DNA of 64,000 nt, taken from assembly GCF_964194155.1 (NCBI RefSeq), contig NC_135901.1, positions 33,790,001 to 33,854,000 on the forward strand, read 5' to 3'. Shown one piece after another: positions 3,144 through 63,792 of this stretch (position 1 is the stretch's first letter; each line of letters starts with the position of its first letter). This stretch comes from Cetorhinus maximus. Lineage: Eukaryota. The notes under the pieces are model-generated. The model was not told the origin of the DNA, searched no databases, and saw only the letters and a list, made by a program, of their open reading frames with translations. Both the position numbers and the translations under genes were made by a program.

Positions 3144-4181
3144 ATGGACAGACACAAGGACACTCAGACAATGGAGAAACCATGGAAATGTGAAGACTGT
3201 GGGAAAGGATTCAATTACCCGTCCCAGCTGAAAAATCATCAATGCAGTCACAGCGGGAAGAGGCCGTTCACCTGCTCCGAGTGTGGAAAGGGATTCACAC
3301 AATCATACCAGCTGCTGACACATCAGCGGGTTCACACTGGGGAGAGGCCATTCACCTGCCCTGTATGTGGGAAAGGATTTACTAGGTCTTCTGATGTGCT
3401 AAAGCACCAGCGAATTCACATAGGGACGAGGCCATTCACCTGCTCTGAGTGTGGGAAGGGATTCACTCAGTCATCGAACCTACTGAGACACCAGCGAGTT
3501 CACACTGGAGAGAAACCGTTCCTCTGCTCCGAGTGTGGGAAATCATTCACTCAGCTATCCAACCTGCTAAGTCACCAGCGAATTCACACTGGGGAGAGGC
3601 CGTTCACCTGCCCTGTATGTGCGAAAAGATTCACTAGATCCTCGGATCTGCTGAAGCACCAGCGAATTCACACTGAGGAGAGGCCGTTCAGCTGTACTTC
3701 CTGTGGAAAGAGATTCAGGTCTTCATCTAACCTTACTGTACACCAGCGAGTTCACACAGGGGAGACACCGTTCATCTGCTCCGAGTGTGGGAAGGGATTC
3801 ACTCAGTTACCCACCCTACTACGTCACCAGCGGGTTCACACTGGGGAGAGACCGTTCACCTGCTCCGAGTGTGGGAAAGGATTCACTCAGCTCTCCCACC
3901 TGCTAACACACCAGCGACTTCACACAGGAGAGAGACCATTCACCTGTCCTGTATGTAGGAAAGGATTCAGTGGGTCCTCTAACCTGTTGAAGCACCAGCG
4001 AATTCACACTGAGGAGAGGCCATTCAGCTGTACTTCCTGTGGAAAGAGATTTAGGTCTTCATTCCACCTCAAAGTACACCAGCGAGTTCACACTGGGGAG
4101 AGGCCATTCACCTGCTCCGAGTGTGGGAAGGGATTCGCTCAGTTATCCACCCTGCTGACACACCAGCAAGTTCACAAGTGA
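3144..4181 (+). CDS. Tandem C2H2 zinc-finger protein, class B, 12 fingers
   Basis: Twelve CxxC-x12-HxxxH repeats with TGERPF-type linkers. Splice acceptor tttacag ends at 2825. The paralog-conserved start MEKPW is at 3171. Confidence 0.92.
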
Positions 4182-4594
4182 CTGCAGGGGCTGGATTCTG
4201 CTGTTATTGCGGCTGTTGATCACATCCAGGACTGAACCATGTTCATTCTGACAGTTGGGGTTTGTTTCTGCTGATGTTAATAATCCCTCTAACTGGGCTG
4301 GAGTTTAATATCCTGGATCTATAGCTGATTGTGTTCTCGGGGCTGCAGTGTCGCTTTAAGAACAGCCGTCTCTGATCTTTCCCCATAACTCAGGAACTTA
4401 AATCAGAAATTAATTTACAACACAATTCTGAACTTTGACTTCAATCCCAAATTGATCTCTGGGACAAACTCTACAAATTCAGTGTCAGAGAGATTTCCCT
4501 GATTAACATCTCCAGTTAGAAAGTGCTGATTAATCCTTGCTGACAATTCTTACTGACTTGCACATTACTCACACTGACACCTCCATTATCCACC

Positions 4595-5271
4595 AGAAAG
4601 AAGGGGAATGGGAATTGCTGGAGAATCGAGAGTTCCCAAATGTTACCCCTCCCGCGTGGTACAGAAATTCCCTCGGCTCAGGAATGGAGACAAGTTCAGT
4701 CCAATAACAGACTACGAAATCTCTCTCTAATAACCTTATAAAATCTTCAGAAATTTATGTAATATGATGGAAAAAAAGCTCACCCTCTCTCTCTCTTATG
4801 GAGAAAGCTTCCATAGCAGCTGACGAACACAGGAAAGGCCTGTTATCTCTGCCAAGGACATGTCTCTAGCACAGGCCCTGAAACAAGACATTTCTAACCC
4901 TGATACGATTGGATCTCATGACCCATATGTAAACCAACTGTCTGTGTAAAGGTTAAACAGGCTCCCGAGAGCACAGAGATATTGAAGTGATCCACACTGG
5001 CTTCAGCCCAACACCCACACTCTGGCTCACACCAGTTAACCGTTCAGAGGAGACTGAGCTATGGAGACTAGCACTTGCTCTGTGTCATCCGTCCGTTTGT
5101 CCTCCGGGACCGATAAATTGTTCTCACCTGTCACGGGTCGTGTGTTCTCCTGTCTATTTAGCTTACGCATCATATTTAACCTGTGGCTTCTCAATAAACT
5201 ACTTTAAAATCACTTCTGAGCTTAACCCCTTTTTTTGGGTAATCTGTGACTCCCGAACCTAAATCTTACCA
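4595..5271 (+). mobile_element. LTR with upstream polypurine tract (ERV/LTR-retroelement 3' end)
   Basis: agaaagaaggggaa followed by TG at 4609, ends ...ttacCA at 5271, AATAAA at 5193. Absent from the homologous flank of the gene at 44631. Second copy at 32037-32717. Confidence 0.6.
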
Positions 5272-5274
5272 GCA

Positions 5275-5980
5275 GTTCTGGTCGCCATATTATAGAAAAA
5301 GATATCGATTCACTGAATAGGGCCCAGAGCAGATTTATAATGAAGATACCAGAAATGGGCGGGTAAACATATCAGGAAAGGATTGACAGACTTGGTCTCT
5401 TTTCTCTTGAGAAAATAAAGCTGAGTTCTTTAAAATGATGAACGGTTTTGATAGAGTGGATACAGAGAGAAGGTTTCCTCTTGTGGGGAAGAGCATAATT
5501 AGAGGCCGTCAATATAAATAGTCACCAAGAAATCCAATAGGGAATTCAGAAGAAATCTTTTAACCCAACGAGTGGTGAGAAAGTGGAACTTGCTACCACT
5601 GGGAGTGATTAAAGTGAATTGTATGACTTTCGTTTAGTTGAAAAAGGCGCAATGCGTAGATGTGATTTTTTTTGCAAAGGATGGGGCTGTGTATGTGACT
5701 ATATGTAGCTTCTAGCACGTGTAAGTGAGCCACAATCGTAATTTGGTTGTTCGTGTAATTCTTAGCACAGTCAGGATTGTTTAGCAAGTGTTGTCCAATC
5801 ATGGAATCACATCTAATATTATTTAAGGGGAAGCTAGACAAGCACAAGAGGGAGAAGGGAATAGATAGTTACCATGTTAGATTGAGATAAGGAAAGATGG
5901 GAAGAGACTCTCGTGCAGCATAAACACCAGCATTGACTTGTTGGGCCTTTTGGCCTGTTTCTGTGTCATGTATCCAATGT
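5275..5980 (+). mobile_element. CR1 LINE 3' fragment
   Basis: Degenerate version of the CR1 ORF2 C-terminus seen intact at 17458-18400, ending in the gggcc...tggcctgtttctgtg tail. Confidence 0.65.
5627..5815 (-). mobile_element. Penelope-like element (family 2) GIY-YIG C-terminal fragment nested in CR1
   Basis: Translation DSMIGQHLLNNPDCAKNY...LHVLEATY...PILCK resembles the PLE endonuclease C-terminus. Copies at about 31770-31950 and 35090-35200. Confidence 0.55.
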
Positions 5981-6089
5981 AATTACACTCCTGAAGGGTC
6001 TGGTTCTAACTTTTAGACTATAACATGTATTCGTAGACAACCTAACCAGCAGAAACAATGTAAATTTACCCTCTGTTCCCCTTAATGTG

Positions 6090-6300
6090 TTCGATTCTGC
6101 TGTTACTGTCACTGTTAATCACATCAGGAACTGAACCATGCTCATTCTGACAGTTGTTTTATTTCTACTGATGTTAATAATCCCTGTAACTGGTCTGGAG
6201 TTTAATATCTTAATATCTCTTAAATAAATCAGCTTTGTTTCAAACGCACAGTGTGTTGAGTCATTGATTTCTCCAGGATAAGAGGATGTCCTGTTACCGA
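6090..6300 (+). pseudogene. Orphan ZNF 3' UTR remnant
   Basis: Full ZNF-type 3' UTR with AATAAA and no upstream fingers. Mirrored at about 31300-31500. Confidence 0.6.
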
Positions 6301-7119
6301 CTGTTCCATTTTTATATCTTTTCTTCTCTCTTAACTCTTGATTCTTTCAGTTCTCATACCTCTGGTTACTCTCATGGACAAGTCCCAGCTCCCCACACCT
6401 CCCAGAGAGCCTCTCTTCACCTTGGGATCCAGGGAAGTTATCGATATTAAAAACTGAAAATGCAGGAAATGATAATCCATACTTTTCCAAGTGCTTATTG
6501 TCCCAGATTATTGTCTCCAACCTTTCCCCAACACTGATGTGAAGCTGATTGCCCTGGAGTTGCTGTGTTTTTGAGCAGGGGTGTAACATTTACAATCTGT
6601 CAGTCCTTTGACACCACTACGATATAAGGAGGATTGGAAGATTGTGACCAGAGTCTCCACAAGTTCCATGTGAAGGATGCTGTCTCTGACAGTGCAGCAG
6701 TCCCTCAATGTCACCCTGGAGTGTCAGCCTAGATAATGTGCTCAGGTTTATTAATATTTCCTCTTGTTATTGATGTGGGTCATTAAGAAACAATGGACTC
6801 TTATGATGCCATCCAGTCCCAGTGCGATGATGTCATCATGACTATTAAATAACAGCGGAGCCTTAGTGGTGAAAACAGTTTTGTTCGAGATGGCGACAAG
6901 TCCATTACTGATAGATCAGCAAATGAAATTAATGGGAAAGAAAATGTTGCAGACATGAACATCAGGAATAGTGTTGTGAATTATGAAGATGAGCAACATC
7001 TACAGTATACAGGTCCCATCTCCAAACGCACCGAGCACATCTCCCAACACTCTTCCCCCACCTCCTGACTTGCTTCCCCATCTCTCGACCCACTGCCCCC
7101 ATCCCCCGACACGCTGCTC

Positions 7120-8467
7120 CATAGAAAAGTTACAGCACAGGAGGTATTCAGCCCATCTTGTCCATGCCAGCCCAAGGACACCCAGGTGCCCTTTCTAATC
7201 CCACCTTCCTGCATCCGGCCCATAGCCCTGCAGCTTACAGCACTTAAGGTGCAGATCCAGGTACTTCTTAAAAGAGTTTAGAGTTTCTACCTCTACCACC
7301 AACTTGGGCAGCAAATTCCAGACACCCACTACCCTCTGTGTAAAAAAGTTCTTCCTCATGTCCCCCCTACACCTTCTGCCACTTATCTTGAATCTATGGC
7401 CCCTGGTTCTAGAATTCTTCACCAAGGGAAACAATTTTATCCTGTCCACTCTATCTATTCTCCTCATAATTTTGTACACCTCAATCAAGTCACCTCTCAG
7501 CCTTCTTTGTTCTAAGGAAAATAACCCCAACCTATCCAATCTCTCCTTGTAGCTACACTTTTCTAACCCTGGCAACATTCTTGTAAATCTCCTCTGCACT
7601 CTCTCCAGAGCTATTACGTTCTTCCTGTAATGTGGTGACCAGAACTGCACACAATGTGTGGCCTCACAGTTGTGGCCTCACCAGTGTTTTATAAAATTCC
7701 AACATTATATCCTTACTTTTATATTCTATACCTCTGCCAATGAAGGAGAGCATTCCATATGCCTTTTTTACAACCTTGTCTACTTGAACTGCTGCCTTCA
7801 GGAACCTGTGTACTTGTACGCCAAGATCTCTCACTTCATCTACCCCTCTTAGTATATTCCCATTTATTGTGTAATCCCAATTGTGTAACTGTTTGACTTC
7901 CCTAAATGTATGACCTCACACTTCTCTATGTTAAAATCCATCTGCCACTTTACTGTCCACTCCATCAACCCATCTATATCGTTTTGGAGATTATGGCTAT
8001 CCACTACTCGGCCAATCTTTGTGTCATCTGCAAATTTCCCAATCGTGCCCCCCACGTTCACGTCCAAATCGTTAATATATAACACAAACAGCAAGGGTCC
8101 CAACACCAAGCCCTGTGAAACACCACTTGAGACAACTTTCCATTTGCAAGGGCATCCATCGACCATTACCCTTTGTTTCCTGTTACAAAGCCAACATTTT
8201 ATCCAGTTTACCACATTGCCCTGAATCCCATGGGCTTTTACTTTCCTGACCAATCTGCCATGTGGGACCTTGTCAAATGCCTTCTTGTCACTTCCTCAAA
8301 GAATTCAATCAAATTTGTGAGGCAATACCTTCCTTTAACAAATCCATGCTGACCATCCCTGACTAGTCCATGCCTTTCTACATGACAGTTAATCCTATCT
8401 CTCAGGATTGATTCTACTAATTTGCTCACCACCGATGTAAGACTAACCGGCCTATAATTGTTTGGCA
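7120..8467 (-). mobile_element. CR1 LINE, 5'-truncated, RT region and 3' end
   Basis: ORFs NYRPVSLTSVV, QGLVLGPLLFVLYINDL...KFADDTK and QFWSPHYRK...RRLRGDLIEVYK. 3' tail ctgtgctgtaacttttctat. Confidence 0.9.
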
Positions 8468-9458
8468 TTTCCCGACATGCTGCCCCCAACTCTCGACACG
8501 CTGCCCCCATCTCCCCACACTCTGCCCCCAACTCCCAACACGCTGCCCCCATCTCCCCGACACTCTGCCCCCATCTCCCGACACTCTGCCCCCATCTCCC
8601 GACACTCTGCCCCCATCTCCCGACACTCTGCCCCCATCTCCCCACACTCTGCCCCCATCTCCCGACACTCTGCCCCCATCTCCCGACACACTGCCCCCAT
8701 CTCCTGACACGCTGCCCCCATCTCCCGACACTCTGCCCCCATCACCCTACACGCTGCCCCATCTCCTGACAGGTTGCCCCCATCTCCCGACACTCTGCCC
8801 CCATCTCCCCACACTCTGCCCCCAACTCCTGACACGCTGCCCCCATCTCCCCACACGCTGCCCCCATCTCCCCGACACTCTGCCCCCATCTCCCGACACT
8901 CTGCCCCCATCTCCCGACACTCTGCTCCCATCTCCCGACACTCTGCCCCCATCTCCCCACACTCTGCCCCCAACTCCCGACACGCTGCCCCCATCTCCCC
9001 ACACGCTGCCCCCATCTCCCCGACACTCTGCCCCCATCTCCCCGACACTCTGCCCCCATCTCCCGACACTCTGCCCCCATCTCCCGACACTCTGCTCCCA
9101 TCTCCCGACACTCTGCCCCCATCTCCCCACACTCTGCCCCCATCTCCCCACACTCTGCCCCCATCTCCCGACACACTGCCCCCATCTCCCGACACTCTGC
9201 CCCCATCTCCCGACACTCTGCCCCCATCTCCCTACACGCTGCCCCATCTCCTGACAGGCTGCCCCCATCTCCCGACACTCTGCCCCCATCTCCCCACACT
9301 CTGCCCCCATCTCCCGACACTCTTCCCCCATCTCCCCACACTCTGCCCCCATCTCCCCACACTCTGCCCCCATCTCCCGACACTCTGCCCCCATGCTCCC
9401 CACATTCTGTGCCATCTCCCGACACACTGCCCCCATCTCCCGACACTGCCCCCATCTC
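8468..9458. repeat. 21-bp minisatellite (ctgcccccatctcccgacact), about 47 units
   Basis: Direct tandem repeat visible in the sequence. Degenerate units also occur at 7015-7120 on the other side of the CR1. Confidence 0.95.
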
Positions 9459-10189
9459 CCGAGCAGCCTGTCACTACCTCTGCTGAACCCACACAGGATG
9501 CACCATGTTGAAGCCAGAGGAAAGAACTGGGAGAGAAATTGTAATTCACCAAGGGTGTGCACATGGGGGTTTAACAAAATATTAAGTTTCCTGTTTTTGA
9601 CAATGAAACATAAAACGTATTGATCGAAACCACTTCCAGCTCTTGTCCATTCTGACATCCCGTGGGCCAGCTCACCCTCTCACTGGGTTCATGCTGAATG
9701 TCAATCCAGGCTGGGAGCCATTGGGTGGATGTGCAATGGGTGGGTTAGTGGGTGAAGGAATGTTCAGTTCACAGGGAGGGGGATGGGGGAGGGGGGTTGG
9801 TGCTGGTGGTGGGAAGTGTTCATTCTGAAGGAGTCCCAACTGAAACTAACTTATCACTTTCCAATGCTGTGTATTTCCCCAGGTTTGTGCTGGTCAAATT
9901 TTCAGTATTTATATATTTTTTATCTTTGCTCAAACATATTCTTGTTCTGACACTGAAATCCAGAGGATTTTAACACTGTTAAAGTCAATCCCCATCGAAT
10001 ACACAGGAGGACTCAACTGGTCCTAACTTTTTATGGTATCAATAAACAAAGATCCTACAAGATGTTTATTTGGGGAATTGTTTTTCTCTGAGACCCGGGA
10101 TGGTCAAACTATGGCCCCAAAGTTCAGGTTTGGGCCTTGAGCCTAGGCTGTGGGGCCCACATACAAGGAGCACCATTACCGGATGTCCT

Positions 10190-10440
10190 TCATCCCCGAA
10201 TTTAATCATTCCACCATTGGTGGCCGGGCCTTCAGCTGCCTGGACCCTAAGCTCTGGAATTTCCACCCTAAACCTCTCCACCTTTCTACTTCACTTTCCT
10301 CCTTTAAGACACTCCTTATAACCGACCTCTTTGAACAAGCTTTTGGTCATCTGGCCTAATATGTCCTTATGCTCCTGTGAAACTCATTGGGATGTTTTAT
10401 GATGTTAAAAGTGCGATATAAATATAAGTTGTTGCAGTTG
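10190..10440 (+). mobile_element. L2-type 3' fragment
   Basis: STIGGRAFSCLDPKLWN...FKTLL...LFEQAFGHL followed by the tail aaatataagttgttg. Confidence 0.65.
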
Positions 10441-10839
10441 TAGTAGTTCTGTCAGACCTGATCATTCACTGAGCGAGTGAGTCTTGGTAAATGTAACTCA
10501 GATAGACACAGCTTGTGTCATAGTTCAGTGAGACCTGATCACTTACTGAGTGAGTCTGCATCCATGTAACTCAGATAGATGCAGCCTGTTAGAACACTCC
10601 TGGGAAGAAGGAAGTTCTCGGATTTTTGTTCTCCCCAAATGGGAAAAGCTGATTCTTTCCAAACATTCAAAATTAATAATAAAGTTATTCAAGATGATTT
10701 GTTGTAGTGAGCTGAATTATTTGGTAGAATTAGAGTGAAGGAGTGGGATTGACCCACATCCTGAGTCACCACTTTAAGGATAGGGAGAGAGAGAATCTGG
10801 AGAGGAGAAAATAATTAGTAGGAGACCAGGCACTGAATC

Positions 10840-11192
10840 TGGAACAATGAGCAGAGAGGGGGAGGAGTGTGTGGGACGGAGATTTATAGATTTGGGGGAA
10901 TGAAAGGAGAAAGAATATTCCATAGAAACTAGAATTGTCTGCTCTGAATTTCTATCTGTACTGACAGTGATGACTTTTGTCAACTGTGTTTACAGGGGAT
11001 TAGAGGGAGAGGATTTTCAGATGGGGAAACTCAAACCAAAAATCTCGACAAGATCTTATAGAATCACTGAATTCATATAAAGATCAGCCTCTGATTATGG
11101 AAGCAGAAATGGATTATGGAAGCATTCTGTCTGTGGGGAAAGATTTAAACATCAGTGTGGCTGGAAAATCACCGGGGACACACACACCCGAG
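10840..11192 (+). pseudogene. Truncated class B ZNF (intron end and head of the coding exon only)
   Basis: Matches 2680-3005, including the acceptor tttacag and the first vestigial finger. It is cut by an L2 fragment. Confidence 0.65.
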
Positions 11193-11194
11193 TT

Positions 11195-11712
11195 GGAAAC
11201 TCATCTCTGGGTCAAATATGGCATCAAGCATGCAAAATGTCTGGTTTAGATTCAGAGTTGCCAGGGAGAGGAATGGAGTTGGTAGCTAGGGAATGTAAAT
11301 AATGGCTTCAGTCTTCCCAATATTTAATTGGAGGAAATTTCTGCACATCCACCACTGGGTGTCAGACAAACAGTCTGATAATTAAACGAAAGTGGAGAAG
11401 TGGAAAGAAGTGGTGGTGAGGTAGAGCTGGGCACTGTCAGTGTACATGTGATAACTGACACTGTGTTTTCAGATGATGTCGCTGTGGGGAGCATGCTGAT
11501 GAGAAATAAGAGGCCAAGGCTGGATCCTTTGGGGACACCAGAGGTAACTGTGGGAGTGGGAAGGGAAGACATTCCAAGTGATTCTCTGGCTATGATTAGA
11601 TAGAGAAGAATGGAACCAGGAGAGAGCAGCCCCACCCAGCTGGACGACAGTGGAGAGGTGTTGGAGCAGAATGGTGTGGTCAACCCTGTCAAAGGCTGCA
11701 GACAGGTCAAAG
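11195..11712 (-). mobile_element. L2 LINE RT fragment
   Basis: Frameshifted motifs DLSAAFDRVDHTILLQHL and GVPKGSSLGLLFLISMLP. Confidence 0.75.
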
Positions 11713-11714
11713 CT

Positions 11715-12387: not shown

Positions 12388-12837
12388 TCACTCATGAATC
12401 CGCTGGTGTCTCAGCAGGTGGGATGAAGTAGTGAATCCCTTTCCACACTCGGAGCAGGTGAACGGTCTCTCCCCAGTGTGAACTCGCTGGTGTCTCAGCA
12501 GGTTGGATGACCGAGTGAACCCCTTCCCACACTCTGAGCAGGTGCACAGTCTCTCCCCAGTGTGAACTCGCTGGTGTCTCAGCAGGTTGGATACCTGAGT
12601 AAATTGTTTCCCGCACATGGAGCAGGTGAACGGCCTCTCCCCAGTGTGACTGCGCCGATGTGTTTCCAGCTGAGACGGGTAGTTGAATCCCTTCCCACAT
12701 TCCCCACATTTCCACAGTTTCTCCCCGGTGTGACTGCGCCGATGAGTTTCCAGCTCAGACGGGTAGTTGAATCCCTTCCCACATTCCCCACATTTCCACA
12801 GTTTCTCCCGAGTGTGAACAGTGCTTTTACCTTCCAT
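12388..12837 (-). CDS. Tandem C2H2 zinc-finger protein, class A, 5 fingers
   Basis: ATG at 12837 (MEGKST), five fingers, acceptor tttcacag at about 12947, ZNF-type 3' UTR. Confidence 0.85.
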
Positions 12838-24409: not shown

Positions 24410-24860
24410 GAAAGCGTCACAATGCCCGGCTGATTGACGGCAACTGCGGACCAATAGGAAGAGGGGGCGGGAACGGAGGACCGAGCGTGAGCCGCTGGTC
24501 CTCCAACCAATCGGAGTGAATGAGGGGCGGAGCTGGGCTGTGAGTGAAGCATGCGCAGTGTGAGTAATGGCGATGGACGCTTCTTTCTCGGATCCGCAAT
24601 AAGTGAGTGGGTGAATGGCGGGGCGGAGGGCGCGGTCGATTCGGCCGGCGGGCGGGGAGGCTTCGTAAAAATGTTGTGTGAGCCGCAAACCCCGAAAAAG
24701 AACTTCCCTGTACCCAGAGGGACCGTCCCCTCGTTTGGTCCGAGCGAGGCCGGAGCTTTCTCCCAGTTACAGACCCAAGTTAATGGCCGCCATCTTTATT
24801 GGGGGCAATGTGCAGCACGGCGCATGCGCGGTCGCCATCTTTGTAGGGGCAATGTTGGAA
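24410..24860 (+). promoter_or_regulatory. ZNF promoter cassette, exon 1 and intronic YY1/NRF1 module
   Basis: ccaat, ggggcggg, ccaat, ggggcgg, gcatgcgca, atggcg in order. Candidate donor gtgagt at 24603. ggccgccatcttt at 24785 and gcgcatgcgc at 24820. Confidence 0.75.
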
Positions 24861-25500: not shown

Positions 25501-25796
25501 CTCTTCCCTGAAGGACATTCGTGAACAAATTGTTTTTTGTATAACAATCCAGCAGCTTTCACAATTACTTTTTCCTCGTGCCCAACCCACAAATTACCAG
25601 ATTCATTCAGCTTAATTTCCACAAAACCTGCCTTTGTGTTTTTGTGTGTTCTCTCTCACTTTTTTCTGTTTTAAATCAATTTCACAGGGTACTAGAAGGA
25701 GAGGATTTGCAGTCAGGAAACTGAAACCAAACATCACATCAAGATCTGACGGAGTCGCCCAATTTATCGTAACCTGAATATCGTCGGATTTATAAC

Positions 25797-27170
25797 ATGG
25801 AAGGAAAAAGCACCGCTCACAGTGGGGAGGAACCCAATACGTGTTCTGTGTGTGGAGAGGGATTCAGCCGATCAGCTGGCCTGTCAAAGCACAAGTGCAG
25901 TCACACTGGGGAGAACTCATGGAAATGTGGGGACTGTGGGAAGGAATTCAATAACCCATCTGACCTTAAAAAGCATCAGCGCACTCACACTGGGGAGAGG
26001 CCATTCACCTGCTCCATCTGTGGGAAGGGATTCATTCAGCTATCGCATCTATTGAGACACGTGAGAGTTCACACTGATGAGAGACCTTTTAAATGCCCAG
26101 ACTGCGGGAAGTGCTATAAAAGTTCTGGGGAACTGATGTCCCATAAACGTGTTCACACTGACATGAGACCTTTTAAATGCCCAGACTGTGAGAAGTGCTA
26201 TAAAAGTTCCGGGGAACTAATGTCCCATCAACGTGTCCACACTGACGATAGACCGTTCAGGTGCTCTCACTGTGGGACTGGGTTCAGGCGATCATCTAAC
26301 CTCATTGTACACCAGCGAGTTCACACTGGGGAGAGATTGTTCATCTGCGCCGAGTGTGGGAAGAAATTCTTACATTTGTCAAATCTACTGACACACCAGC
26401 GCACTCACACTGGGGACAGGCCATTCACCTGCTCCAAGTGTGGAAAGGGATTCACTACCACATCGAACCTGCTGAAACACCAGCAGGTTCACACTGATGA
26501 GAGACCCTTTAAATGCCCGGACTGCGGGAAGTGCTTTAAAAGTTCCAGGGAACTGATGTTCCATCAACGTGTTCACACCGTCGAGAGACCGTTCAGGTGC
26601 TCTCACTGTGGGACTGGGTTCAGGCGATCATCTGAACTCACTGCGCACCAGCGAATTCACACCGGGGAGAGACCATTCATCTGCTCCCACTGTGGGAAGG
26701 GATTCACTCAGTTATCCACACTGCTGAGACACCAGCGAGTTCACACTGGAGAGAGATTATTCACCACCTCCTCGTGTGGGAAGGGATTCACTCAATTGCG
26801 ATATCAGCTGAGACACCAACCGCTTCAAAGTGGCAAGAGACCTTTCACCTGTTCTGAGTGTGGGAAGGAATTCACCCATTCTTCCACCCTGCTGACACAC
26901 CAGCGAGTTCACACTGATGAGAGACCTTTTAAATGCCCAGACTGCGGGAAGTGCTTTAAAAGTTCAGGGAATCTGATGTCTCATCAACGTGTTCACACTG
27001 ACGAGAGACCGTTCAGGTGCTCCCACTGCGGGGCTGGGTTCAAGCGTTCTTCTCATCTCACCATACACCAGCGCACTCACACTGGGGAGAGGCCGTTCAC
27101 TTGCTTCGAGTGTGGGAAGGGATTCACTCAATCATCCCACCTGCTGACACACCAGCGAGTTCACAAGTAA
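25797..27170 (+). CDS. Tandem C2H2 zinc-finger protein, class A, 16 finger units (one degenerate)
   Basis: 457-aa ORF, acceptor tttcacag ending at 25687, AATAAA at 27295. Confidence 0.93.
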
Positions 27171-27589: not shown

Positions 27590-28255
27590 AGGGAGGATTT
27601 AAATGCTTAGATTGTACCAAGAACTTTAAAAACCCGCATTCACTGATGGTTCACCAGTGCAGTCTCTCCGGTTCCACTCCATTCATCTCACTGCGGGAAG
27701 AGGTTCAGGTGATTGTCCATCCTGCTGCAACACCAGTGGGTTCACACCGGGGAGAGGTCATTCACCTGCTCCATGTGTGGGGAGGGATTCACTAATTCAT
27801 TCAACCTGTTGACACATCAGCGAGTTCACACTGACAGAAGATCTTTTGAACATCCGGTTTGCAGGAAAGGTTATAAAAATTCTGTGGAACCAATGTACCA
27901 TCAACGTGTGCACACTGACAAGAGACTGTTCAGGATCTCTCACTGTGGGACTGGGTTCAGGTGATCCTGTGAACTCAGTGTCCACCAGCTCACTCACACT
28001 GGGGAGAGACCGTTCACCTGTTCCGTGTGTGGGAAGAGATCCACTCAGTCGTCCCAATTCAATACACATCAACTTGATCACACTGATAAGGAACCTTTTC
28101 AAAGTTCTGACCGTGAACAGAGATTAAAAGGCCAAATGGATCTGCTAAAACACAAACACATTCACACTGGGGAGAGGCTGTTCACCTGCTCTGTGTGTGG
28201 GAAGAGATTCACTCGGTCATCTCACCTACTGACACACCAGCGAGTTCACAGATGA
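27590..28255 (+). pseudogene. Degenerate C2H2 ZNF array
   Basis: About 8 decayed fingers with stops and frameshifts, followed by a ZNF-type 3' UTR. Confidence 0.8.
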
Positions 28256-33143: not shown

Positions 33144-33902
33144 TCACTTGTGATGTCGCTGGTGTCTTTGTAGGCTGCCAGACTGAGTAAATCCCTTCCC
33201 GCACTCGGAGCAGGTGAACGGTTTCTCCCCAGTGTGAACTTGCTGGTGTCTCATCAGGTGGGATGAACAGGTGAATGTCTTCCCACACTTGGAGCAGGAG
33301 AATGGCCTCTCCCCAGTGTGAACTCGCTGGTGTGTCTGTAGGTGAGATAACTGAGTGAATTTCTTCCCACACTCGGAGCAGGTGAACGGCCTCTCCCCAG
33401 TGTGAACTCGCTGGTGTACACTGAGGTGGGTTGAAGACCTGAATCGCTTTCCACAAGAAGTACAACTGAACAGCTTCTCCTCAGTGTGAATTCGCTGGTG
33501 ACTTTGTACGTCAGAGGGTCCAGTGAATCCTTTCCCACATACAGGGCAGGTGAACGGCCTCTCTCCAGTGTGAACTTGCTGGTGTCTCAGCAGGTTGGAT
33601 GACTGAATGAACCCCTTCCCACACTCGGAGCAGGTGAATGGTCTCTCTCCAGTGTGCATTCGCTGGTGTCTCAGCAGGTCCGATGACTGAGTGAATCCCT
33701 TCCCACACTTGGAGCAGGTGAACGGCGTCTCTCCAGTGTGAAACCGTTGGTGTGTTAGCAGTTGGGACGACTGAGTGAATCCCTTCCCACACTCAGAGCA
33801 GATGAACGGCCTCTCCCCGGTGTGACTGCGTCGATGAATTTCCAGCCGGGATGGGCAATTGAATCCTTTCCCACAGTCCTCACATTTCCACAGTTTATCC
33901 AT
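33144..33902 (-). CDS. Tandem C2H2 zinc-finger protein, class B, 9 fingers
   Basis: 252-aa ORF made entirely of fingers. Acceptor ttttgacag at about 34240. Confidence 0.9.
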   Translation of the reverse strand: MDKLWKCEDCGKGFNCPSRLEIHRRSHTGERPFICSECGKGFTQSSQLLTHQRFHTGETPFTCSKCGKGFTQSSDLLRHQRMHTGERPFTCSECGKGFIQSSNLLRHQQVHTGERPFTCPVCGKGFTGPSDVQSHQRIHTEEKLFSCTSCGKRFRSSTHLSVHQRVHTGERPFTCSECGKKFTQLSHLQTHQRVHTGERPFSCSKCGKTFTCSSHLMRHQQVHTGEKPFTCSECGKGFTQSGSLQRHQRHHK

Positions 33903-35915: not shown

Positions 35916-35916
35916 C

Positions 35917-37213: not shown

Positions 37214-39014
37214 GGGGTTAGAAGGGGAGGATTTACACAGAGCAAACTCAAACCAAGAGAAATGTTTGTCTCTTCTCAATTTCTATCCAATCTCAATACC
37301 CTTTCCTCATGCAGCATAGTTTGTTGTTCTCTTTGAAATTTGGTATCCTTGCATCTGTCCGGATAAGTGCAACAGGAAAACCTTCAATTGCATGTCTTTT
37401 TTCAACAATACTTAAATTCTGCATGAGAAATTTCGCAGTGAAACACAGCGAATTCACATTGAGGAGAGGCCATTCAGTTGCTCACAGTGTGGTAAGAGGT
37501 TCAGGACATCATCCCACTTGCTGAGACGCCAGCGCATTCACACTGATGAGAGACCTTTTAAATGCTCAGAGTGTGAGAAGTGCTTTAAAAGGTGTGGGAA
37601 ACTGATGTTCCATCAATTTGTTCACACTGACAAGAGACCGTTCAGATGTTTTCACTGTGAGACTGGGTTCAGGCAATCAAAAGACCTTAAGATAAAAGCA
37701 AAAAACTGCAGATGCTGGAAATCCAAAACAAAAATGAAAATACCTGGAAAAACTCAGCAGGTCTGGCAGCATCTGCAGAGAGGAACACAGTTAACATTTC
37801 GAATCAGTGTGACTCTTCAACAGAACTAAGTAAAAATAGAAAAGAGGTGAAAGATAGGCTGGTTTAAGTGGGGGTGGGGGGGGGGAGGGTAGAGCTGGAT
37901 AGAGGGCCAGTGATAGGTGGAGATAACCAAAAGATGTCACAGACATAAGGATAAAGAGGTGTTGAAGGTGGTGATATTATCTGAGGAATGTGCTAATTAA
38001 GGGTAGAAAGCAGGACAAGCAAGGTACAGATAGCCCTAGTGGGGGTGGGGTGGGGTGAAGGAATCGAAATTAGCTAAAAGGTAGAGATAAAATAATGGAT
38101 GGAAATACATTTAAAAATGATGGAAATGGGTGGGAAAAGAAAAATCTATATAAATTATTGGGAAAAGGGGGCGGGGGGGATCGGAAAGAGGTTGGGGATG
38201 GAGGAGAGAGTTCATGATCTAAAATCGTTGAATTCAATATTCAGTCCGGAAGGCTGTAAAGTGCCTAGAAGATGAGGTGCTGTTCCTCCAGTTTGCGTTG
38301 AGCTTCACTGGAACAATGCAGCAGGCCAAGGACAGACATTGGGCATGAGAGCAGGGTGGAGTGTTGAAATGGCAAGAGGCAGGGAGCTCTGGGTCATGCT
38401 TGCGGACAGACCAAAGGTGTTCTGCAAAGCGGTCACCCAGTCTGCCTTTGGTCTCTCCATTGTAGACCTTATTCAACTCAAGCGCTATTTGACACTAGGG
38501 AGAGACCAACACCTGCTCCAAGTGTGGAAAGGAATTCACTCAGTTGCCCCATCTGCAGACACAGACACACCGGCGAGTTCACACTGATGAAGCGTTTTAA
38601 ATGCCCAGCCTGTGTGAAGTGCTAGAAATGTTCCAGGGAACTGATGTCCCATCAACGTATTCACACTGACAAAAAATTGTTCAGGTGCTCTCACTGTGGG
38701 TCTGGGTTCAGGCGATCATCTGATCTCACTGTACACCAGTGGATTCACAGGGGGGAGAGACCGTTCTCACGCTCTGAGTGTGGGAAGGGATTTTGTTGTT
38801 CATCCACACTGCAGAGACATCAACGAGTTCAAAAGTATCAAGGCAAAATACGGCAGATACTAGAAATCTGAAATGAAAACAGAAAGTGCTGGAAAGACTC
38901 AGTAGTTCTGGCAGCATCTGTGGAGAGAGAAACAGAATTAACATTTCAAGGTCGTATAACTCTTCTTCGGAAGAGTCACATGGACTCAAAATGTTAACTC
39001 GAGTTCACAAATAA
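37214..39014 (+). pseudogene. ZNF pseudogene interrupted by three PLE insertions
   Basis: Acceptor ttttccag, leader, and decayed fingers at 37440-37689 and 38464-38837. PLE pieces at about 37290-37420, 37690-38463 and 38838-38999. Confidence 0.8.
37690..38463 (-). mobile_element. PLE family 1, 5'-truncated
   Basis: GETKGRLGDRFAEHL; 8-bp TSD agacctta (37682-37689, 38464-38471). Confidence 0.85.
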
Positions 39015-44630: not shown

Positions 44631-45473
44631 TTATTTGTGAACTTGCTGGTGTCTCAGCAAACTGGATAGCCAATGGAATCCTTTCGCACACACAGTGCAA
44701 GTGAATGGCCTCTCTCCAGTGTGAACTCGCTGGTGGGCTTTGAGGTTGCCTGAATGCCTGAACTTCTTTCCACAGGAAGTGCAACTGAAGGGCTTCTCCT
44801 CAGTGTGAACTCGCTGGTGTATCAGACAGTGGGATGACTGAGTGAATCCCTTCCCACACATGGAGCAGGTGAATGGTTTCTCTCCAGTGTGAACTCGCTG
44901 GTGTGCAGTGATTTCAGATGAAGACCTGAACCTCTTTCCACAGTAACTGCAGCTGAATGATTTGTCTTCAGTGTGAATTCGCTGGTGTAATGCCAGGTTG
45001 GCTGACTGAGTGAAACCTTTCCCGCACACGGAGCAGGTGAACGGCCTCTCCCCAGTGTGAACTCGCTGGTGTTTCAGCAGGTGGGAGGACACAGTGAAAC
45101 CCTTCCCACACTCGGAGCAGGTGAACGGTCTCTCTCCAGTGTGAATTCGCTGGTGTTCAGTGAGGTGGGATGACTGCCTGAACCTCTTTCCACAGTAATT
45201 GCAGCTGAATGGCCTCTCCTCAGTGTGAACTCGCTGGTGTGACATGAGACAAGCTGACTGAGTAAATCCCTTGCTACAAACGGAACAGATGAATGGCTTC
45301 TCCCCAGTGTGACTGCGGTGATGGTTTTCCAGCAGGTATTGATAATTAAATCCTTTACCACAGTCCTTGCATTTCCATGGCCTCTCCCCAGTGTGACTGC
45401 GGCGATGAAATTCTAGCCGGGATGGATAATTGAATCCTTTTCCACAGTCCTCACATTTCCATGGTTTCTCCAT
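44631..45473 (-). CDS. Tandem C2H2 zinc-finger protein, class B, 10 fingers
   Basis: 280-aa ORF, acceptor ttttacag at about 45803, donor ccg|gtaaga at 46331. Confidence 0.92.
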
Positions 45474-48800: not shown

Positions 48801-50190
48801 TCATCTGTGAGCTCACTGGTGTGTCACTAGATGAGATGACTGAGTGAATCTCTTCCCACATGCAGAACAGCCTCGAACCAGTATTGTTTGTATGTCAGCA
48901 GACCCGTTTTGTTCAAGGTCAGAACTTTGAACAGGTTTCTTATAAGTGTGAACAAGTTGATGGCACATCAGTTCCACAGAGCTTTTAAAACACTTCCTGC
49001 AACCCAGACATTCAAAAGATCTTCCATCAGTGTGAACTCACTGGTATGTCAACAGGTTGAATGAATTAGTGAATCTGTCCCCACACAGAGCAGGTGAATG
49101 ACCTCTGTAAAGAACCTATTTTTATTTTTTTTTGGACTGTTGCTTTAAAATTGGACTGTGGCTTTAAAAACTACCATGGCCGCAGTTTGAAAGACATGTT
49201 CACTGGCATAGGATGAGGAACATCTACAACGTTGCTATCCTGGAAGAGAGCGTGCTATAAAAGAACAGGATGGTGCTAGAAAGGAGTCCTGGACTAAAAG
49301 GAACTGCCTGACGACAACATTTTAATTGGTGCCTGACCAGGTGACCAGGGTTGTGTGTGGTAACAGTGCAGGCAGTACAGCTCCTAGCCTGCAAAGAGGG
49401 AAGACCTAAAACCTCTCGCTCTTGTGTTTGTAAGATTCCAGTGATTCTGCCATAGTAGCTAGCTGGCTATTCCTCATATCTCTGTAACCTGCTTTCTCTG
49501 AAAACCCCTGTCAAGAGGAAAAGGGAAGAAATCACCAGTAGAGACATTGAAAAGCAAGTTTTTCAACCAGTGAACCACAGACTGAAAGTGCTGGAGACCA
49601 CCTCGTGTCATCAACAACAAACTGCAAGGAATTTGGAAGGCATCAAGCAAAACGAACCCATCTAATCCTGTACACCGGATTGGTGCTATTGAGCTGTTTT
49701 ATCTCACCCTTAAAATCCATGTTTTGTGTGTCTAATGTCTGTGTGCGTGTGTTAGTGTAGAGGGGTTTAAGAAAGGGTAGAGTTTAAGTTATAGTGTTAG
49801 AAGTTAGCAGTTCATATTTCTTTCTTTTGCCTCTGGTTAAAGCCAATTTGTTCAATAAACAGTTATTTACTTATTAAGTTTACAAACCTGGTGCTCATAT
49901 TCTATTAACCTGAATTAGGTAGAGTTGGGGCAATCTGGTGGTTTGGTCAAACTTTTCACATTTCTCTCAGCTCGATGAACAATGGGGCTTGTTACAGCGC
50001 ACAATCCCCAGTGAGTCGGGACATCTCTCCCGGGTGTGAACTCACTGGTGTTGCAGCAGGATGGACAAACACCTGAGCCTCTTCCCGCACTGAGGGCAAA
50101 TGAATGGAGTGGAACCGGAGTGAATACACTGGTGAACCATCAGTAAATGTGGGTTTTTAAAGCTTTTTTCACAATCTAAGCATTTAAGTG
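48801..50190 (-). pseudogene. Degenerate ZNF array, paralog of 27590-28255, split by a solo LTR
   Basis: KCLDCEKSFKNPHLLMVHQC...[23 protein letters not shown]; continues at 48801-49105. Confidence 0.75.
49106..50023 (+). mobile_element. Solo LTR
   Basis: TGT...ACA termini, splits a ZNF linker, TSD cctc/tctc, AATAAA at about 49855. Confidence 0.8.
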
Positions 50191-50462
50191 CTCTCCAGTC
50201 TGAACTCACTGGTGTGTGTGTGTGTGTGTGGAGGCTGGATGGAAAAAGATGGGAATTCAGCGATGGGACTAAGGAGAACTTTAGAGACAGTTTGGCCCAG
50301 TGGGCTAGTGGAAGGGAGGGAAGCAGCAGAGGCAGCTGATCAGATTGGCTCAATCGCAGTGACAAAGAAGCTCCATGAGCTCCTCACACTTGTTGTTTGA
50401 GAGGAGGATAAAGGGGAGAGGGAGAGCCCTTCAAAAGGAACAGCAAAATCCAATTACTGCAC

Positions 50463-50620
50463 TCATTTGTGAACTCGCTGGTGTCTCAGTGGGTAGGATG
50501 AACAAGTGAATCCCTTCCCACACTTGGAGCAGGTGAACAGTCTCTCCCCGCTGCGAACTCGCTGGTATTCAGTGAGGTCAGATGATCGCCTGAACCCAGT
50601 CCCACAATGAGGGCATCTGA
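50463..50620 (-). pseudogene. Orphaned last two fingers and ancestral stop of the 51484-52785 gene
   Basis: [20 protein letters not shown]...[22 protein letters not shown], matching the last two fingers of the paralog at 25797. Confidence 0.75.
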
Positions 50621-50790
50621 GTTTTCATTCCTTATGAGGTTTGCCATCACTGTCAAGGCCATTCCCACATTCGTTGTCCAACTGTAAATAGCCCTTGAAC
50701 CGAGTGGCTTGCTTGGCCATTTCAGAGGGCAGTTAAGAGTCAAACACATTGCTCCTGGTCTGGAGTCGCATGTAGGCCAGACCAGGTATG

Positions 50791-51483: not shown

Positions 51484-52785
51484 CTACGGCACCATCTCAG
51501 CGTGAACACGTTGATGGGTCATCCGGTTCCCAGCAGTTTTATAGCACTTCCCACAGTCTGGGCATTTAAAAGGCCTCTCGTCAGTGTGAACTCGCTGGTG
51601 TCTCAGCAGGGTGGACGAGGTAGTGAATCCCTTCCCACACTCGGTGCAGGTGAAAGGTCTCTCATCAGTGTGGAGTCGCTGGTGTCTCAAAAGGTATCGC
51701 GATTGAGTGAATCCCTTCCCACACACAGAACACGTGAATAGTCTCTCCCCATTGTGAACCTGCTGGTGTCTCAGCAGGGTGGATAACTGAATAAATCCCT
51801 TTCCACACTTGGAGCAGGTGAACGGCCTTTCCCCAGTGTGAGTGCGCTGGTGCACAGTGAGGTCGCCTGACTGCCTGAACCCAGAGCCGCAGTGAAGGCA
51901 CTTGAACGGTCTCTCATCAGTGTGAGTGCGCTGGTGTACAGAGAGGGCAGATGATGTCTTGAATCCGCTCCCACAGTGAGAGCACATGTATGGTCTCTCG
52001 TCAGTGTGAACGCGTTGATGGGACATCAGTTCTCTGGAACTTTTACAGCACTTCCCACAATCTGAACATTTAAAAGGTCTCACATCAGTGTGAACTCGCT
52101 GGTGTGTTAGCAGCTTGGATGACTGAGTGAATCTCTTCCCGCACTCCGAGCAGGTGAACGGCCTCTCCCCAGTGTGAACTTGCTGGTGTTTCAGCAGGTT
52201 GGATGACCGAGTGAATCCCTTCCCACACTCAGAGCAGGTGAACGGTTTCTCTCCAGTGTGCACTCGTTGGTGTCTTTGCAAGTTGGATGACTCTGTGAAC
52301 CCAGTGCCACACTGGGAGCAGGTGAACGGTCTCTCCCCAGTGTGAATTCGCTGGTGTACAGTGAGTTGAAATGATTGTCTGAACCCAGTCCCACAGTGAA
52401 AGCACCTGAATGGTCTCTCATCAGTGTGAACACGTTGATGGGACATCAGTTCCCCAGAACTTTTATAGCAATTCCCGCAGCCTGGGCACTTAAATGGTCT
52501 CTCCCCACTGTGCACCCGCTGGTGTCTCAGCAGGTGGGATAGCTGACTGAATCCCTTCCCACACTCGGAGCAATTGAACGGCCTCTCACCGGAATGACTG
52601 CGCCGATGCTTTTCCAAGTCAGATGGGTAATTGAATCCTTTCCCACAGTCCCCACATCTCCATGGTTTCTCCTTAGTGTGACTGCACGTGTGTTTTGACA
52701 GGCCAGATGATTGACTGAAGCTTTGTCCACACACAGAACACGTGTAAGGTTTCTCCCCACTCTGAACGGTGCTTTTTCCTTCCAT
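51484..52785 (-). CDS. Tandem C2H2 zinc-finger protein, class A, 15 fingers, C-terminus supplied by a SINE
   Basis: ATG at 52785 (MEGKST). Ends ...RVHAEMVP* inside the SINE head. Confidence 0.88.
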
Positions 52786-54845: not shown

Positions 54846-54849
54846 GCCC

Positions 54850-56628: not shown

Positions 56629-57582
56629 TTACTCGTGAACTTGCTGGTGTCTCAGCAGAGTGGCTGACTGAGGGAATCCCTTCCCACACACAGAACAGGA
56701 GAATGGTCTCTCCCCAGTGTGAACTTGCTGGTGTGTCAGCAGGTGGGATGAATTAATGAATCCCTTCCCACACACTGAGCAGGTGAACGGTCTCTCCCCA
56801 GTGTGAATTCGCTGATGTCTCAGCAGGGTGGCTGACTGAGTGAACCCCTTCCCACATTCGGAACAGGTGAATGGTCTCTCCCCGGTGTGACCTCGCTGGT
56901 GTGTCAGCAGGTGTGATGACTGAGTGAATCCTTTCCCACACTCGGAGCAGGTGAACGGTCTCTCCCCAGTGTGAACTCGCTGATGTGTCAGCAGATGGGA
57001 TGAATTAATGAATCCCTTCCCACAATCAGAGCAGGTGAATGGTCTCTCCCCAGTGTGAACCCGCTGGTGTAGAGTGAGATGACATGATTGTCTGAACCCA
57101 GTCCCGCAGTGAGAGCACCTGAACGGTCTCTCATCTGTGTGAATACGTTGATGGCGCATCAGTTCCCCGTAACTTTTAAAGCACTTCCCGCAGTCTGGAC
57201 ATTTAAAAGGTCTCTCGTCAATGTGAACTCGCTGGTGTTTCAACAGGATGGTTGAGCGAGTGAATCCCTTCCCACACTTGGAGCAGGTGAATGGCCTCTC
57301 CTGAGTGTGAACCCTCTGGTGTGTCAGTAGGGTAGATGACTGAGTGAATCCCTTCCTACATTCCGGGCAGGTGAATGGTCTCTCCCCAGTGTGACTGCGT
57401 CGATGAGTTTCCAGCTCAGATGGGTAATTGAACCCCTTCCCACAGTCCCCACATTTCCACGGGTTCACCCCAGTGCGACTGCACTTGTGTCTCGACAAGC
57501 CAGATGATTGGCTGAAGCCTCGACCACACACAGAGCAAGTGTATGGTTTCTCCCTGCTGTGAACGGTGCTTTTTCCTTCCAT
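56629..57582 (-). CDS. Tandem C2H2 zinc-finger protein, class A, 11 finger units
   Basis: ATG at 57582, acceptor tttttacag at about 57692, polyA signal at 56501-56506. Confidence 0.92.
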
Positions 57583-61060: not shown

Positions 61061-61179
61061 CACCCAGTCTCAGTTAAGCTTTGTCTGAATCTGGATCATG
61101 TTCGCACAGAGGTTAGAAATTTTCAAAAACGAAGCTCCAACTCCTACCATTCGCACCTTCTGATAATCTTGAATTGTGG

Positions 61180-61700
61180 GATAATCTTGAGGAGGGATAT
61201 AATTCAATTTGAAGCAATTCAGAGAAGGTTCACTCGGTTGAACTCTGGAAAGCCGCTGTTCTCTGTGAGGAAAGGTTGAGCCTATAGTCATGCAGTTTAG
61301 AAGAACAAAAGGTGATCTTATTGAACGATGTAAGATCCTTGATGGTATTTGACAGGGTAGATGCTGAGAAGGTATCACCTCTCGTGGGGAATGTAGAACA
61401 ATGGAGCACAGTTAAGGGGCCGTGCATTTACAGTGGGGATAAGGAGAATTTTTTTTCATTTAGATGGTTGTTAATCTTTGGAATTCTCTTCCTAGGGAGC
61501 AGTGGAGGCTGTGTCTTTGAAGATATTCAAAACTGAGCTACATAGGTTTTTGATCCACAAGGGAGTTATAGATTATGGGGACAGGCAGGAAAGTGAAGTT
61601 AAGACCACAATCACATCTTCCATATTATTGAATGTTGAAGCAGGCTCACTGGGCCGAATAACCTACTCCTGTTCCAATTTCTTATGATCTTATGATTCAT
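61180..61700 (+). mobile_element. Old CR1 3' fragment
   Basis: DIIQFEAIQRRFTRL and the caggctcactgggccgaataacctactcctg tail. Confidence 0.65.
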
Positions 61701-62670
61701 AACCAATCTTTATTTATAAACCTGTAGCAGAATGACACTTTGTTCTGATATACTTTGGATTTTAATTGGAATTATCAGATGTTTTTGCTACAATGAGCTT
61801 CGGTTGTGGACTGCAACATTTTCATTCTTCTCTGGTGATCATATCCAAAGGGCTGGAGTAGATAGATGCACTTGGTCTGCAAAATATGATTCCTGTGAGG
61901 GTGATCATGAAATTTTCTGTCAAAGTTCAGTGACATTTGATCACTTAGCGAGTGAGTGAGTCTGTGAAAATGGAACCCAAATAATCACAGCTACTGGAGG
62001 TAATTCGTTGGCTACAATGAGATCGATAAGAAAGGAATCAGAAGCGTGCAGTCCCACCCAGCTGGACACCAGTGGAGAGGCATTGCAGGAGGATGGTTCG
62101 GTCCATGATGTCAAAGACTGCGGACAGGCTGAGAAGGACAGTGAGGGAGAGTTTACCTTTGTCACATTCACACAGGATATAATTTGTACTTTGATAAGAG
62201 CTGTTTCAATACTGTGGCAGGGGCAGAAATCCCTTTGGACGGATTCAAACATGGAATTCTAGGGAAGAAAACATGGATTTGGAAGGTGATCAAGACTTTG
62301 GAGAGGAAATGGAGGTTAGTGATGGGGTTGGGATTTGTAAGGACATGGGGTCTAGGAATGGGCTAGTGGAAGGGAGGGAAACAGCAGTAGCAGCTGATTG
62401 GATTGTCTCAATCTTAGTGACAAAGAAGATCCACGAGCTCCTTGTACTTGTTGCAGATGAGGATGGAGGAGACAGGGGAGAGGCAGAAAACTTCAGAAGA
62501 AACTGACTTTTGATGGAGATATTAAAAAGACTCAATGCATTGCATGTTTAACACAGAGCTGATTTATTTGACTTTTTCCCACAATATTAACATTTATGAA
62601 TGGGTGGGAATTTGTTAACATCAACAGAAACAACCTGGATGTGATTAACAGCAAACTCCAATGACTGTAG

Positions 62671-63792
62671 TTACTTGTGAACTCGCTGGTGTCTCAGTAG
62701 GGCAGATGACTGAGTGAAACCCTTCCCACACACAGAGCAGGTGTATGGCCTCTCCCCAGTGTGAACTCGCCGGTGTGTCAGCAGGTGGGGTGAAGTAATG
62801 AAACCCTTTCCGCAATCAGAGCAGGTGAACGGCCTCTCCCCAGTGTGAATTCGCTGGTGTGTCAGCAAGTGGGATGAATTGATGAATCCCTTCCCACACT
62901 CGGAGCAGGTGAATGGCCTCTCCCCAGTGTGGACTCGCTGGTGTGTTCGCAGTTGGGATGAATTAATGAATCCCTTCCCACACACAAAGCACGTGAATGG
63001 TCTCTCCCCGGTGTGAACCCGCTGGTGTACAATGAGATGAGATGATTGCCTGAACCCAGTCCCACAGTGAGAGCACCTGAATGGTCTCTCGTCAGTGTGA
63101 ATACGTTGATGGCGCATCAGTTCCCCAGAACTTTTATAGCACTTCCCGCAGTCTGGGCATTTAAAAGGTCTCTCCTCCATGTGAACCCGCTGGTGTGACA
63201 GCAGCTCGGATGACTGAGTGAATCCCTTCCCACACTCGGAGCAGGTGAATGGCCTCTCCCCAGTGTGAATGCGCTGGTGTGTCAGCAGGTGGGATGATCG
63301 AGTGAATCCCTTCCCACACTCGGAACAGGTGAATGGTCTCTCCCCAGTGTGACTGCGCTGATGGACAGTGAGTTGCGACGATTGCCTGAACCCAGTCCCA
63401 CAGTGAGAGCACCTGAACGGTCTCTCGTCAGTGTGAACACGTTGATGGCACATTAGGTTCTCGGAACTTTTATAGCACTTCCCACAATCTGGGCATTTAA
63501 AAGGTCTCTCCCTGGTGTGAATTAGCTGGTGTTTCAGCAGGGTGGATGACTGAGTGAATCCCTTCCCGCATTTGGAGCAGATGAATGGCCTCTCCCCAGT
63601 ATGATTGCGCTGATGAGTTTCCAGCTCAGATGGGTAATTAAATCCCTTCCCACAGTCCCCACATTTCCACGGTTTCTCCCCAGTGTGACTGAGTTTATGC
63701 TCTAACAGGTCAGATGACTGGCTGAAGTCTCGTCCACACACAGAACACGTGTGCGGTTTCTCCCCACTGTGAATGGTGCTTTTTCCTTCCAT
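62671..63792 (-). CDS. Tandem C2H2 zinc-finger protein, class A, 13 fingers (promoter beyond the window)
   Basis: ATG at 63792, acceptor tttcacag at about 63901, polyA signal at about 62562. Confidence 0.93.

Follow-up and report, generated by a model that had tools for sequence, protein, structure and literature searches.

The KRAB-ZFPs have been reported only from lobe-finned fish and tetrapods, and yet the genomes of sharks and rays hold about 700-3,600 multi-finger open reading frames (ORFs), the counts in seven shark and skate assemblies running from 703 to 3,586 (supplement to PMC10547256, in its accessible part). The same paper (Wells et al. 2023, PMC10547256), as far as its accessible text goes, shows that the FiNZ-ZNFs of cyprinid fish repress transposable elements. 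The family considered here was met in a stretch of 64,000 nucleotides from the shark Cetorhinus maximus (contig NC_135901.1, positions 33,790,001 to 33,854,000; "the window" below), whose six-frame translation, the source of our gene list, gives 8 open C2H2 arrays of 5-15 fingers and 3 broken arrays. An earlier reading of its letters alone (the sequence-only reading) had pointed to a finger with Trp before its first Cys, the W-finger, present as unit 1 or 2 in all 8 genes, and had proposed that it may be a constant unit that recruits cofactors, noting that some C2H2 fingers bind proteins rather than DNA. We favour another interpretation, with a probability that we put at roughly 40%: the W-finger may be a two-faced cap, which likely still reads DNA while a partner protein common to the whole family likely docks on its putative conserved face. 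The literature searched, with most subscription papers outside its reach, yielded no description of the W-finger or of a shark finger-only ZNF family.

Our evidence comes mainly from 14 blocks (1.664 Mb) of the same genome, in which ORFs with at least three fingers were counted (1076 fingers in 134 ORFs). Constancy was assessed in 72 of these ORFs (Met start, W-finger at position 1 or 2, at least four fingers), the 62 excluded ones including fragments and ORFs without a W-finger, and retention of the W slot in 76 ORFs of at least 150 amino acids (aa) with a family start; dN/dS was obtained by pairwise comparison and from a codon model, and helix positions are numbered -1, +1, +2, +3, +5 and +6. 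In the 72 genes the Lys after the Trp is kept in 68, the Asp before the second Cys in 66, Pro+1 in 66, Ser+2 in 65 and an acidic residue at +5 in 60, as compared with 3 of 514 generic fingers for the last. Hairpin dN/dS is 0.18 (0.13-0.24) in 57 W-fingers, versus 0.45 in generic (61), 0.53 in K-type (26) and 0.42 in R-type (23) internal fingers, all with intervals apart from that of the W-finger; close pairs give 0.24 versus 0.66, 0.70 and 0.34 (27, 23, 17 and 17 pairs), and the codon-model omega is 0.15 versus 0.30. For the first of these comparisons W-fingers were called by their helix and internal classes without hairpin residues, because the first values for the K, R and S classes, then defined by those very residues, were biased low; K and R were re-estimated with classes independent of the hairpin. 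The statement that the W-finger is more constrained than internal fingers is thus true for the hairpin (0.18 versus 0.42-0.53), and the hairpin together with +1 and +5 forms a candidate conserved surface.

Such constancy could in principle arise without any special function, if the family descends from one ancestor, if the unit at the end of an array is rarely shuffled and if the copies convert each other. The family is indeed young (the best matches of a DNA similarity search are about 90% identical), and end units are known to outlast unequal crossing-over. However, silent divergence is 0.30 in W-fingers and 0.33 in other slots, so that the hairpin constancy reflects constraint on the protein and not copying; hairpin replacements are suppressed while silent sites have diverged as elsewhere. 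Finger 0, the true end unit of one gene type (type A, described below), is decaying, and the last finger of the arrays has a hairpin dN/dS of 0.65, both at odds with the protection of an end unit. We consider an absence of function improbable. Gene conversion was examined on its own as the source of the constancy and rejected, silent divergence not being lowered in the W-finger.

The 8 window genes, on the other hand, overstate the constancy of the helix. The helices read from them (NYPSQL, NYPSEL three times, NNPSDL, NCPSRL, NYPSRL and NYPSDL) agree with the sequence when read again; of the 72 genes, 41 have Tyr at -1, 25 have Glu and 16 have Gln at +3, and at +6 there are 30 with Thr, 20 with Ile and 12 with Asn. 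Twenty genes yield 17.3 distinct -1/+3/+6 fingerprints in the W-finger, 18.3-18.7 in generic fingers and 15.6 in R-type fingers. At these contact positions dN/dS in the W-finger comes to 1.81 when all pairs are used and to 1.69 for the 27 close ones, or 1.85 (1.47-2.38), which is 2.3 times the rate of +8 to +10; +3 alone gives 1.6-3.2. With such rates the helix is not under purifying selection, and it may be either positively selected or relaxed. Of the constant finger proposed at the outset, the hairpin, Pro+1, Ser+2 and acidic +5 are therefore held, whereas -1, +3 and +6 vary nearly as in internal fingers.

These figures bear directly on the strong form of the sequence-only reading, in which the W-finger stands off the DNA as a dedicated cofactor-binding domain. 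One of its arguments is borne out, the base-reading chemistry being poor: Arg or Lys occurs at -1, +3 or +6 in 14 of 72 W-fingers against 247 of 514 generic fingers (6 of 29 in the K-type). The acidic +5 and the codon model, with nearly equal omega at contact and exposed sites (0.54 versus 0.59, compared with 0.53 versus 0.19 in the K-type, ligand columns included), would also suit it. Nevertheless, an off-DNA domain hardly explains the diversity of fingerprints and the rate at +3, nor why the Lys at -5, which contacts phosphate, is kept in 92% of W-fingers and the canonical linker follows the W-finger in 54 of 72 cases (4 of 19 before it, 280 of 528 elsewhere). The AlphaFold model, built from 66 alignment rows after 38 of 104 candidate rows had been excluded, consists of three ordinary beta-beta-alpha fingers (pLDDT 90), the W helix beginning at its Pro, and its best structure matches in the PDB are DNA-bound arrays (TM 0.91 to 1mey). 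A sequence search of the PDB with the W unit alone gave no match, and the ESM Atlas returned generic ZNF clusters or no match. With variable contacts, a kept Lys-5 and downstream linker and an ordinary modelled fold, the claim of a constant non-DNA-binding unit is not supported, and we regard its strong form as improbable too; we infer instead, from the fast contact sites, that the arrays probably show sequence-specific DNA binding.

A closer neighbour of our interpretation would see in the W-finger a structural cap and nothing else: unusually stable and able to fold with no finger upstream of it, it would, as first unit, hold the array to DNA, with no cofactor involved. The ordinary fold, the helix starting at Pro and the DNA-bound structure matches fit this well, and the kept residues are of core and helix-start type. 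A finger-only human protein, ZNF146, binds L1 and its loss brings no L1 derepression (PMC8896011, accessible part), which would again suit a cap. Yet the hairpin Asp position is, in generic fingers, the fastest of the hairpin (pN 0.48 versus 0.08 in the W-finger). The hairpin Lys and Asp and Glu+5, moreover, are expected to be solvent-exposed and are held all the same, in 68, 66 and 60 of the 72 genes. We prefer partner docking to a pure cap because exposed residues are held and because the family has no other constant part; the pure cap comes close in probability, though we rate it somewhat lower. In the two-faced cap that we favour, the W-finger would remain DNA-bound at the head of the array, contributing backbone grip and loose base reading, the internal fingers would choose the DNA target, possibly retroelements, and the conserved W residues would offer a common handle, a role played elsewhere by KRAB or FiNZ.

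Several observations weigh against the two-faced cap and are best stated together. Zinc ligands are intact no more often in W-fingers than in internal fingers (92% versus 96%), and internal K-type fingers are equally poor in base-reading residues. A Pro-Ser-Glu helix start and a large core aromatic would be expected in a stabilising cap as well. The contact dN/dS of the W-finger, computed with a helix-local silent rate, is 0.99-1.76 for kappa 1-5, dropping to 0.99 at kappa 1, and stays below that of internal classes throughout (1.0-1.8 versus 1.7-3.7); the equal omega at contact and exposed sites would fit a relaxed helix better than selection driven by DNA, and even the decaying finger 0 shows 1.42 at its contact sites. 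The bootstrap intervals on dN/dS ignore shared ancestry, and the ORF sample may contain recent pseudogenes. Finally, the W slot is missing in 2 of 76 ORFs, the Trp is missing in 4 of 74, and Tyr replaces it in some relatives.

The restriction of the W-finger to the N-terminus, already suspected from the window, is borne out by the 1.664 Mb sample, in which 90 of 97 Trp-start fingers occupy position 1 or 2; 808 fingers lie at position 3 or beyond, and the 7 with Trp among these all fall inside N-terminal runs. Among the 1056 fingers of a control set of 113 ZNF proteins from outside the chondrichthyans, Trp is the starting residue in 3 and Pro+1 occurs in 16. The W slot is kept in 74 of 76 family ORFs and, to give the unbiased figure, in 43 of 45 type-A ORFs detected independently of the W-finger, in line with the family-wide retention that had been supposed. 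In proteins from skate, stingray, sawshark and further sharks the same finger stands at or close to the front, so that it is also present in other sharks and rays. Searching the genome for a W-finger pattern of 31 bases gives 1,201 exact matches (none for the reversed control), and among the first 100 listed 96 fall on C24, the contig of the window, and 4 on C10 and C22; the pattern recovered 29 of 86 W copies of a first sample, so that the count scales to about 3,500 units. The similarity search mentioned above returned 3,645 candidates. We estimate the family at roughly 3,500 W-finger units, apparently spread along C24. Along this otherwise dense chromosome, one 100-kb block (C24:47.5-47.6 Mb) is without a ZNF ORF; an ORF of 36 fingers lies at C24:34,043,144 (-), and two genes, at C24:33,891,626 and 33,929,290 (both +), carry five tandem W-fingers. 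At the other end of the proteins, 39 of the 72 ORFs stop one residue past the last His, and this residue is Lys in 30 of the 39.

A CpG island lies within 9 kb of 58 of the 76 W loci, at a median of 2.15 kb upstream. It is accompanied by a short first exon with an upstream ATG and a GT donor, which appears to be non-coding, 16 examples varying in length (31-50 nt) and phase. The acceptor was located at 60 of 76 loci, and the last exon begins with a leader, which in type A measures 109 nt and is followed by MEGK and then by finger 0 and the W-finger, or by the W-finger alone; in type B the leader holds the decayed remains of three fingers, with the start of the protein at, or close to, an ATG of the linker that precedes the W-finger. 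A full set of zinc ligands is present in 23 of 35 copies of finger 0, 68 of 74 W-fingers and 629 of 652 internal fingers, and the unit before the W-finger is decayed in skate and stingray proteins too. The type-A leader has a dN/dS of 1.00 in 17 ungapped copies. This neutral leader, the often broken finger 0 and the type-B proteins restarting just before the W-finger show an N-terminal erosion that, in the predicted proteins, halts at the W-finger.

The constant effector could still be sought upstream, if an N-terminal domain were restored by a coding exon that has escaped notice, by readthrough of the stops or by RNA editing. The leader length is often frame-preserving, some leaders are open, and in relatives from skates and rays the leader is translated and a PxVxL motif is present (discussed below). 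Against this stand the neutral leader with TGA in 14 and TAA in 13 of the 17 copies, first exons that differ in length and phase, the 47 leader-profile matches, which on inspection by eye share no upstream domain, and the PxVxL part, for which the searches made of this genome gave no match; we think it very improbable that the effector lies there. The sequence-only reading had excluded a spliced N-terminal domain from in-frame stops between acceptor and ATG, and this conclusion is upheld by the stops, present in 8 of 8 window genes, and by the neutrality of the leader. The view of the family as one of predicted finger-only proteins stands. Readthrough of the stops in the leader, or their A-to-I editing, was considered separately and rejected, there being two different stops, a neutral leader and shifted frames in type B.

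Sequence contigs resembling RNA give, at 80% likeness, a depth that increases at the acceptor bin in three of the four runs (363 to 12,090; 144 to 9,681; 298 to 1,977) and falls across the donor, which is a weak hint of splicing at the acceptor because these contigs are paralogues and their RNA nature is a guess; no GT..AG joint from exon 1 to the acceptor was found among 15 of 98 joints. Further leader copies occur upstream in mixed frames, with 155 leader matches in 1.064 Mb, and copies without fingers often form tandem pairs; these stand-alone units are likely extra exons of the 5' untranslated region (UTR) or remnants. Acceptor-plus-leader units without fingers are seen in the window at 10989-11077 (+), 21052-20972 (-) and 37200-37256 (+), and there are many more in the sampled blocks. 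The CpG islands contain AAGATGGC sites, which we take to be YY1-like, at window positions 21164, 35580, 46152, 54856, 54905 and 60430 (+) and 1498, 24789 and 24834 (-), most of them oriented away from the ZNF gene next to them. A Mustelus gene model (P0137) begins MAAVN and splices to an open leader.

The relatives in two skates and one stingray read DPKLS and then P[RL]VVLRRLRLP, after which come the leader in translated form, a finger 0 in decay and the W-finger, and a third skate has a near-identical copy; the proteins noted from skates and stingray are P0016, P0092, P0121 and P0170. They come from automatic gene prediction, and one model is fused to unrelated sequence. PxVxL is a putative HP1-binding motif (PMC7655104, accessible part); matches to the HP1 chromo-shadow profile span only positions 21-52 of 52. 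Further relatives with the motif amount to 1 protein among 897 candidates and none among 101 shorter ones, a Mobula relative lacks it, and being so few they may form a small subfamily. In Cetorhinus itself the motif is absent from the 72 ORFs, and PxVxLx[RK]L has only 2 chance-like matches in 1.664 Mb; a protein search of the genome with the PxVxL front gave 69 matches, none starting before residue 24, and a second one for the PxVxL part gave no match over the motif (one match, E 0.57, lies on C6). MER..SDP can be read in one of the frames of some shark first exons, a thin hint that these exons may be homologous to the skate start. It is conceivable that sharks and rays have a third independent ZNF silencing system, in which an ancestral N-terminal PxVxL recruited HP1 and was kept in skates and rays, the shark front end decayed to UTR, and thousands of finger-only copies arose whose first finger would both read DNA and recruit silencers; we consider this scenario unlikely as a whole.

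The 8 open genes show the tandem Kruppel-type C2H2 (PF00096) pattern (C-x2-C-x12-H-x3-H, 28-residue period, TGEKP-type linkers). That they are finger-only was confirmed by the six-frame translation and by Pfam, in which finger-type families alone appear among the rows listed for the 3 of 8 proteins submitted; by coordinates, 4 genes have the W unit in first place and the other 4 in second, as had been claimed. Gene 1 (3144..4181, +; 345 aa, 12 fingers) is of type B, with its W-finger at 3183..3251 (unit 1), a leader of three decayed fingers with stops and frameshifts from acceptor to ATG (2826..3143) and, in the CpG island, a presumably non-coding first-exon motif with GT donor (1235..1355). 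Gene 2 (12388..12837, -; 5 fingers) is of type A without finger 0, its acceptor being at 12946, and carries W-fingers at 12798-12730 and 12714-12646. Gene 3 (25797..27170, +; type A, 15 fingers, W-finger 25920-25988 as unit 2) has a first-exon motif at 24517..24602 with an upstream ATG and a stop, a donor GT at 24603 with a depth step in RNA-like contigs, and a leader at 25688..25796, decayed former coding sequence, with acceptor and in-frame TGA and TAA. Gene 4 (33144..33902, -; type B, 9 fingers) has its W-finger at 33890-33822 and its acceptor at 34239.

Gene 5 (44631..45473, -; type B, 10 fingers; acceptor near 45802, first-exon motif 46419-46299) has W-fingers at 45461-45393 and 45377-45309. 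The reported N-terminal duplication of the W unit is thus found in genes 2 and 5, although the second copy of gene 5 is without Pro (NYQYLL). Gene 6 (51484..52785, -; type A, 15 fingers) has its W-finger at 52662-52594, acceptor at 52894 and first-exon motif at 55177-55067. In gene 7 (56629..57582, -; type A, 10 intact fingers) the W-finger (57459-57391) is preceded by a broken finger 0 that has lost its last His; acceptor and first-exon motif are at 57691 and 60709-60588. Gene 8 (62671..63792, -; type A, 13 fingers) has its W-finger at 63669-63601 and its acceptor at 63900, and no promoter for it was found within the window. The broken arrays, which appear to be pseudogene remnants, lie at 27713..28255 (+), 37416..38871 (+) and 48813..50624 (-).

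Among internal fingers, a K-type finger followed by an R-type finger (CSHCGTGFR) is a recurring pair, for example at 25797-27170 (+), and in the K-type finger base-reading residues are as scarce as in the W-finger and positions +8 to +10 are held. Between the genes we noticed fragments that we take to be RT-like or LINE-like at 15972-18453, 35905-36423 and 54184-54756 (+) and at 43428-42814 and 48381-47764 (-). A 21-bp tandem repeat of 47.5 copies (8466-9462) is open in several frames, and the window contains no tRNA gene.

Our analysis narrows the effector candidate to the Trp, the hairpin Lys and Asp, Pro+1 and Glu+5, residues that can be mutated singly, and the PxVxL motif of skates and rays is a second testable lead. 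If a partner is found, thousands of genes would carry an effector inside a DNA-binding finger; failing that, the W-finger is still a useful family marker.

We finally compare the family with known systems, relying on the accessible parts of the papers cited. The Drosophila ZAD-ZNF Oddjob reaches heterochromatin via a putative HP1-binding PxVxL (PMC7655104), as the skate and ray relatives may do, whereas the shark window genes have neither PxVxL nor ZAD. Human ZNF146/OZF and ZNF507 are likewise C2H2 proteins without other identifiable domain and bind L1 (PMC8896011), but they are single genes for which that text describes no signature first finger, and their loss causes no L1 derepression. The KRAB-ZFPs, acting with TRIM28 in tetrapods and lobe-finned fish, share with our family the clustered birth-and-death arrays and the diversifying fingers in one last exon (PMC10380595). 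The shark family differs from them by the stops in its leader and by the lack of KRAB: a search of the genome with PF01352 (150 of 152 candidates scored) gave a single match, at C34:9,123,034-9,123,144 (L217), and none on C24, in agreement with the original description of the family as KRAB-less. The C34 match is presumably of PRDM9 type. The FiNZ-ZNFs come close in being lineage-restricted, with tandem C2H2 genes that number from hundreds to thousands on a single chromosome, and in combining fast base-contacting positions with one constant N-terminal element that has an acidic residue (PMC10547256); FiNZ, however, has a coding exon to itself and is a domain of 28 aa that is not a finger, while the constant element of the shark family is a finger in the array exon. 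A separate coding exon of this kind was not seen in Cetorhinus, where first exons vary and the leader is neutral with stops (no FiNZ profile was run). The shark family thus resembles the FiNZ and KRAB families in its cluster dynamics and is a member of neither.

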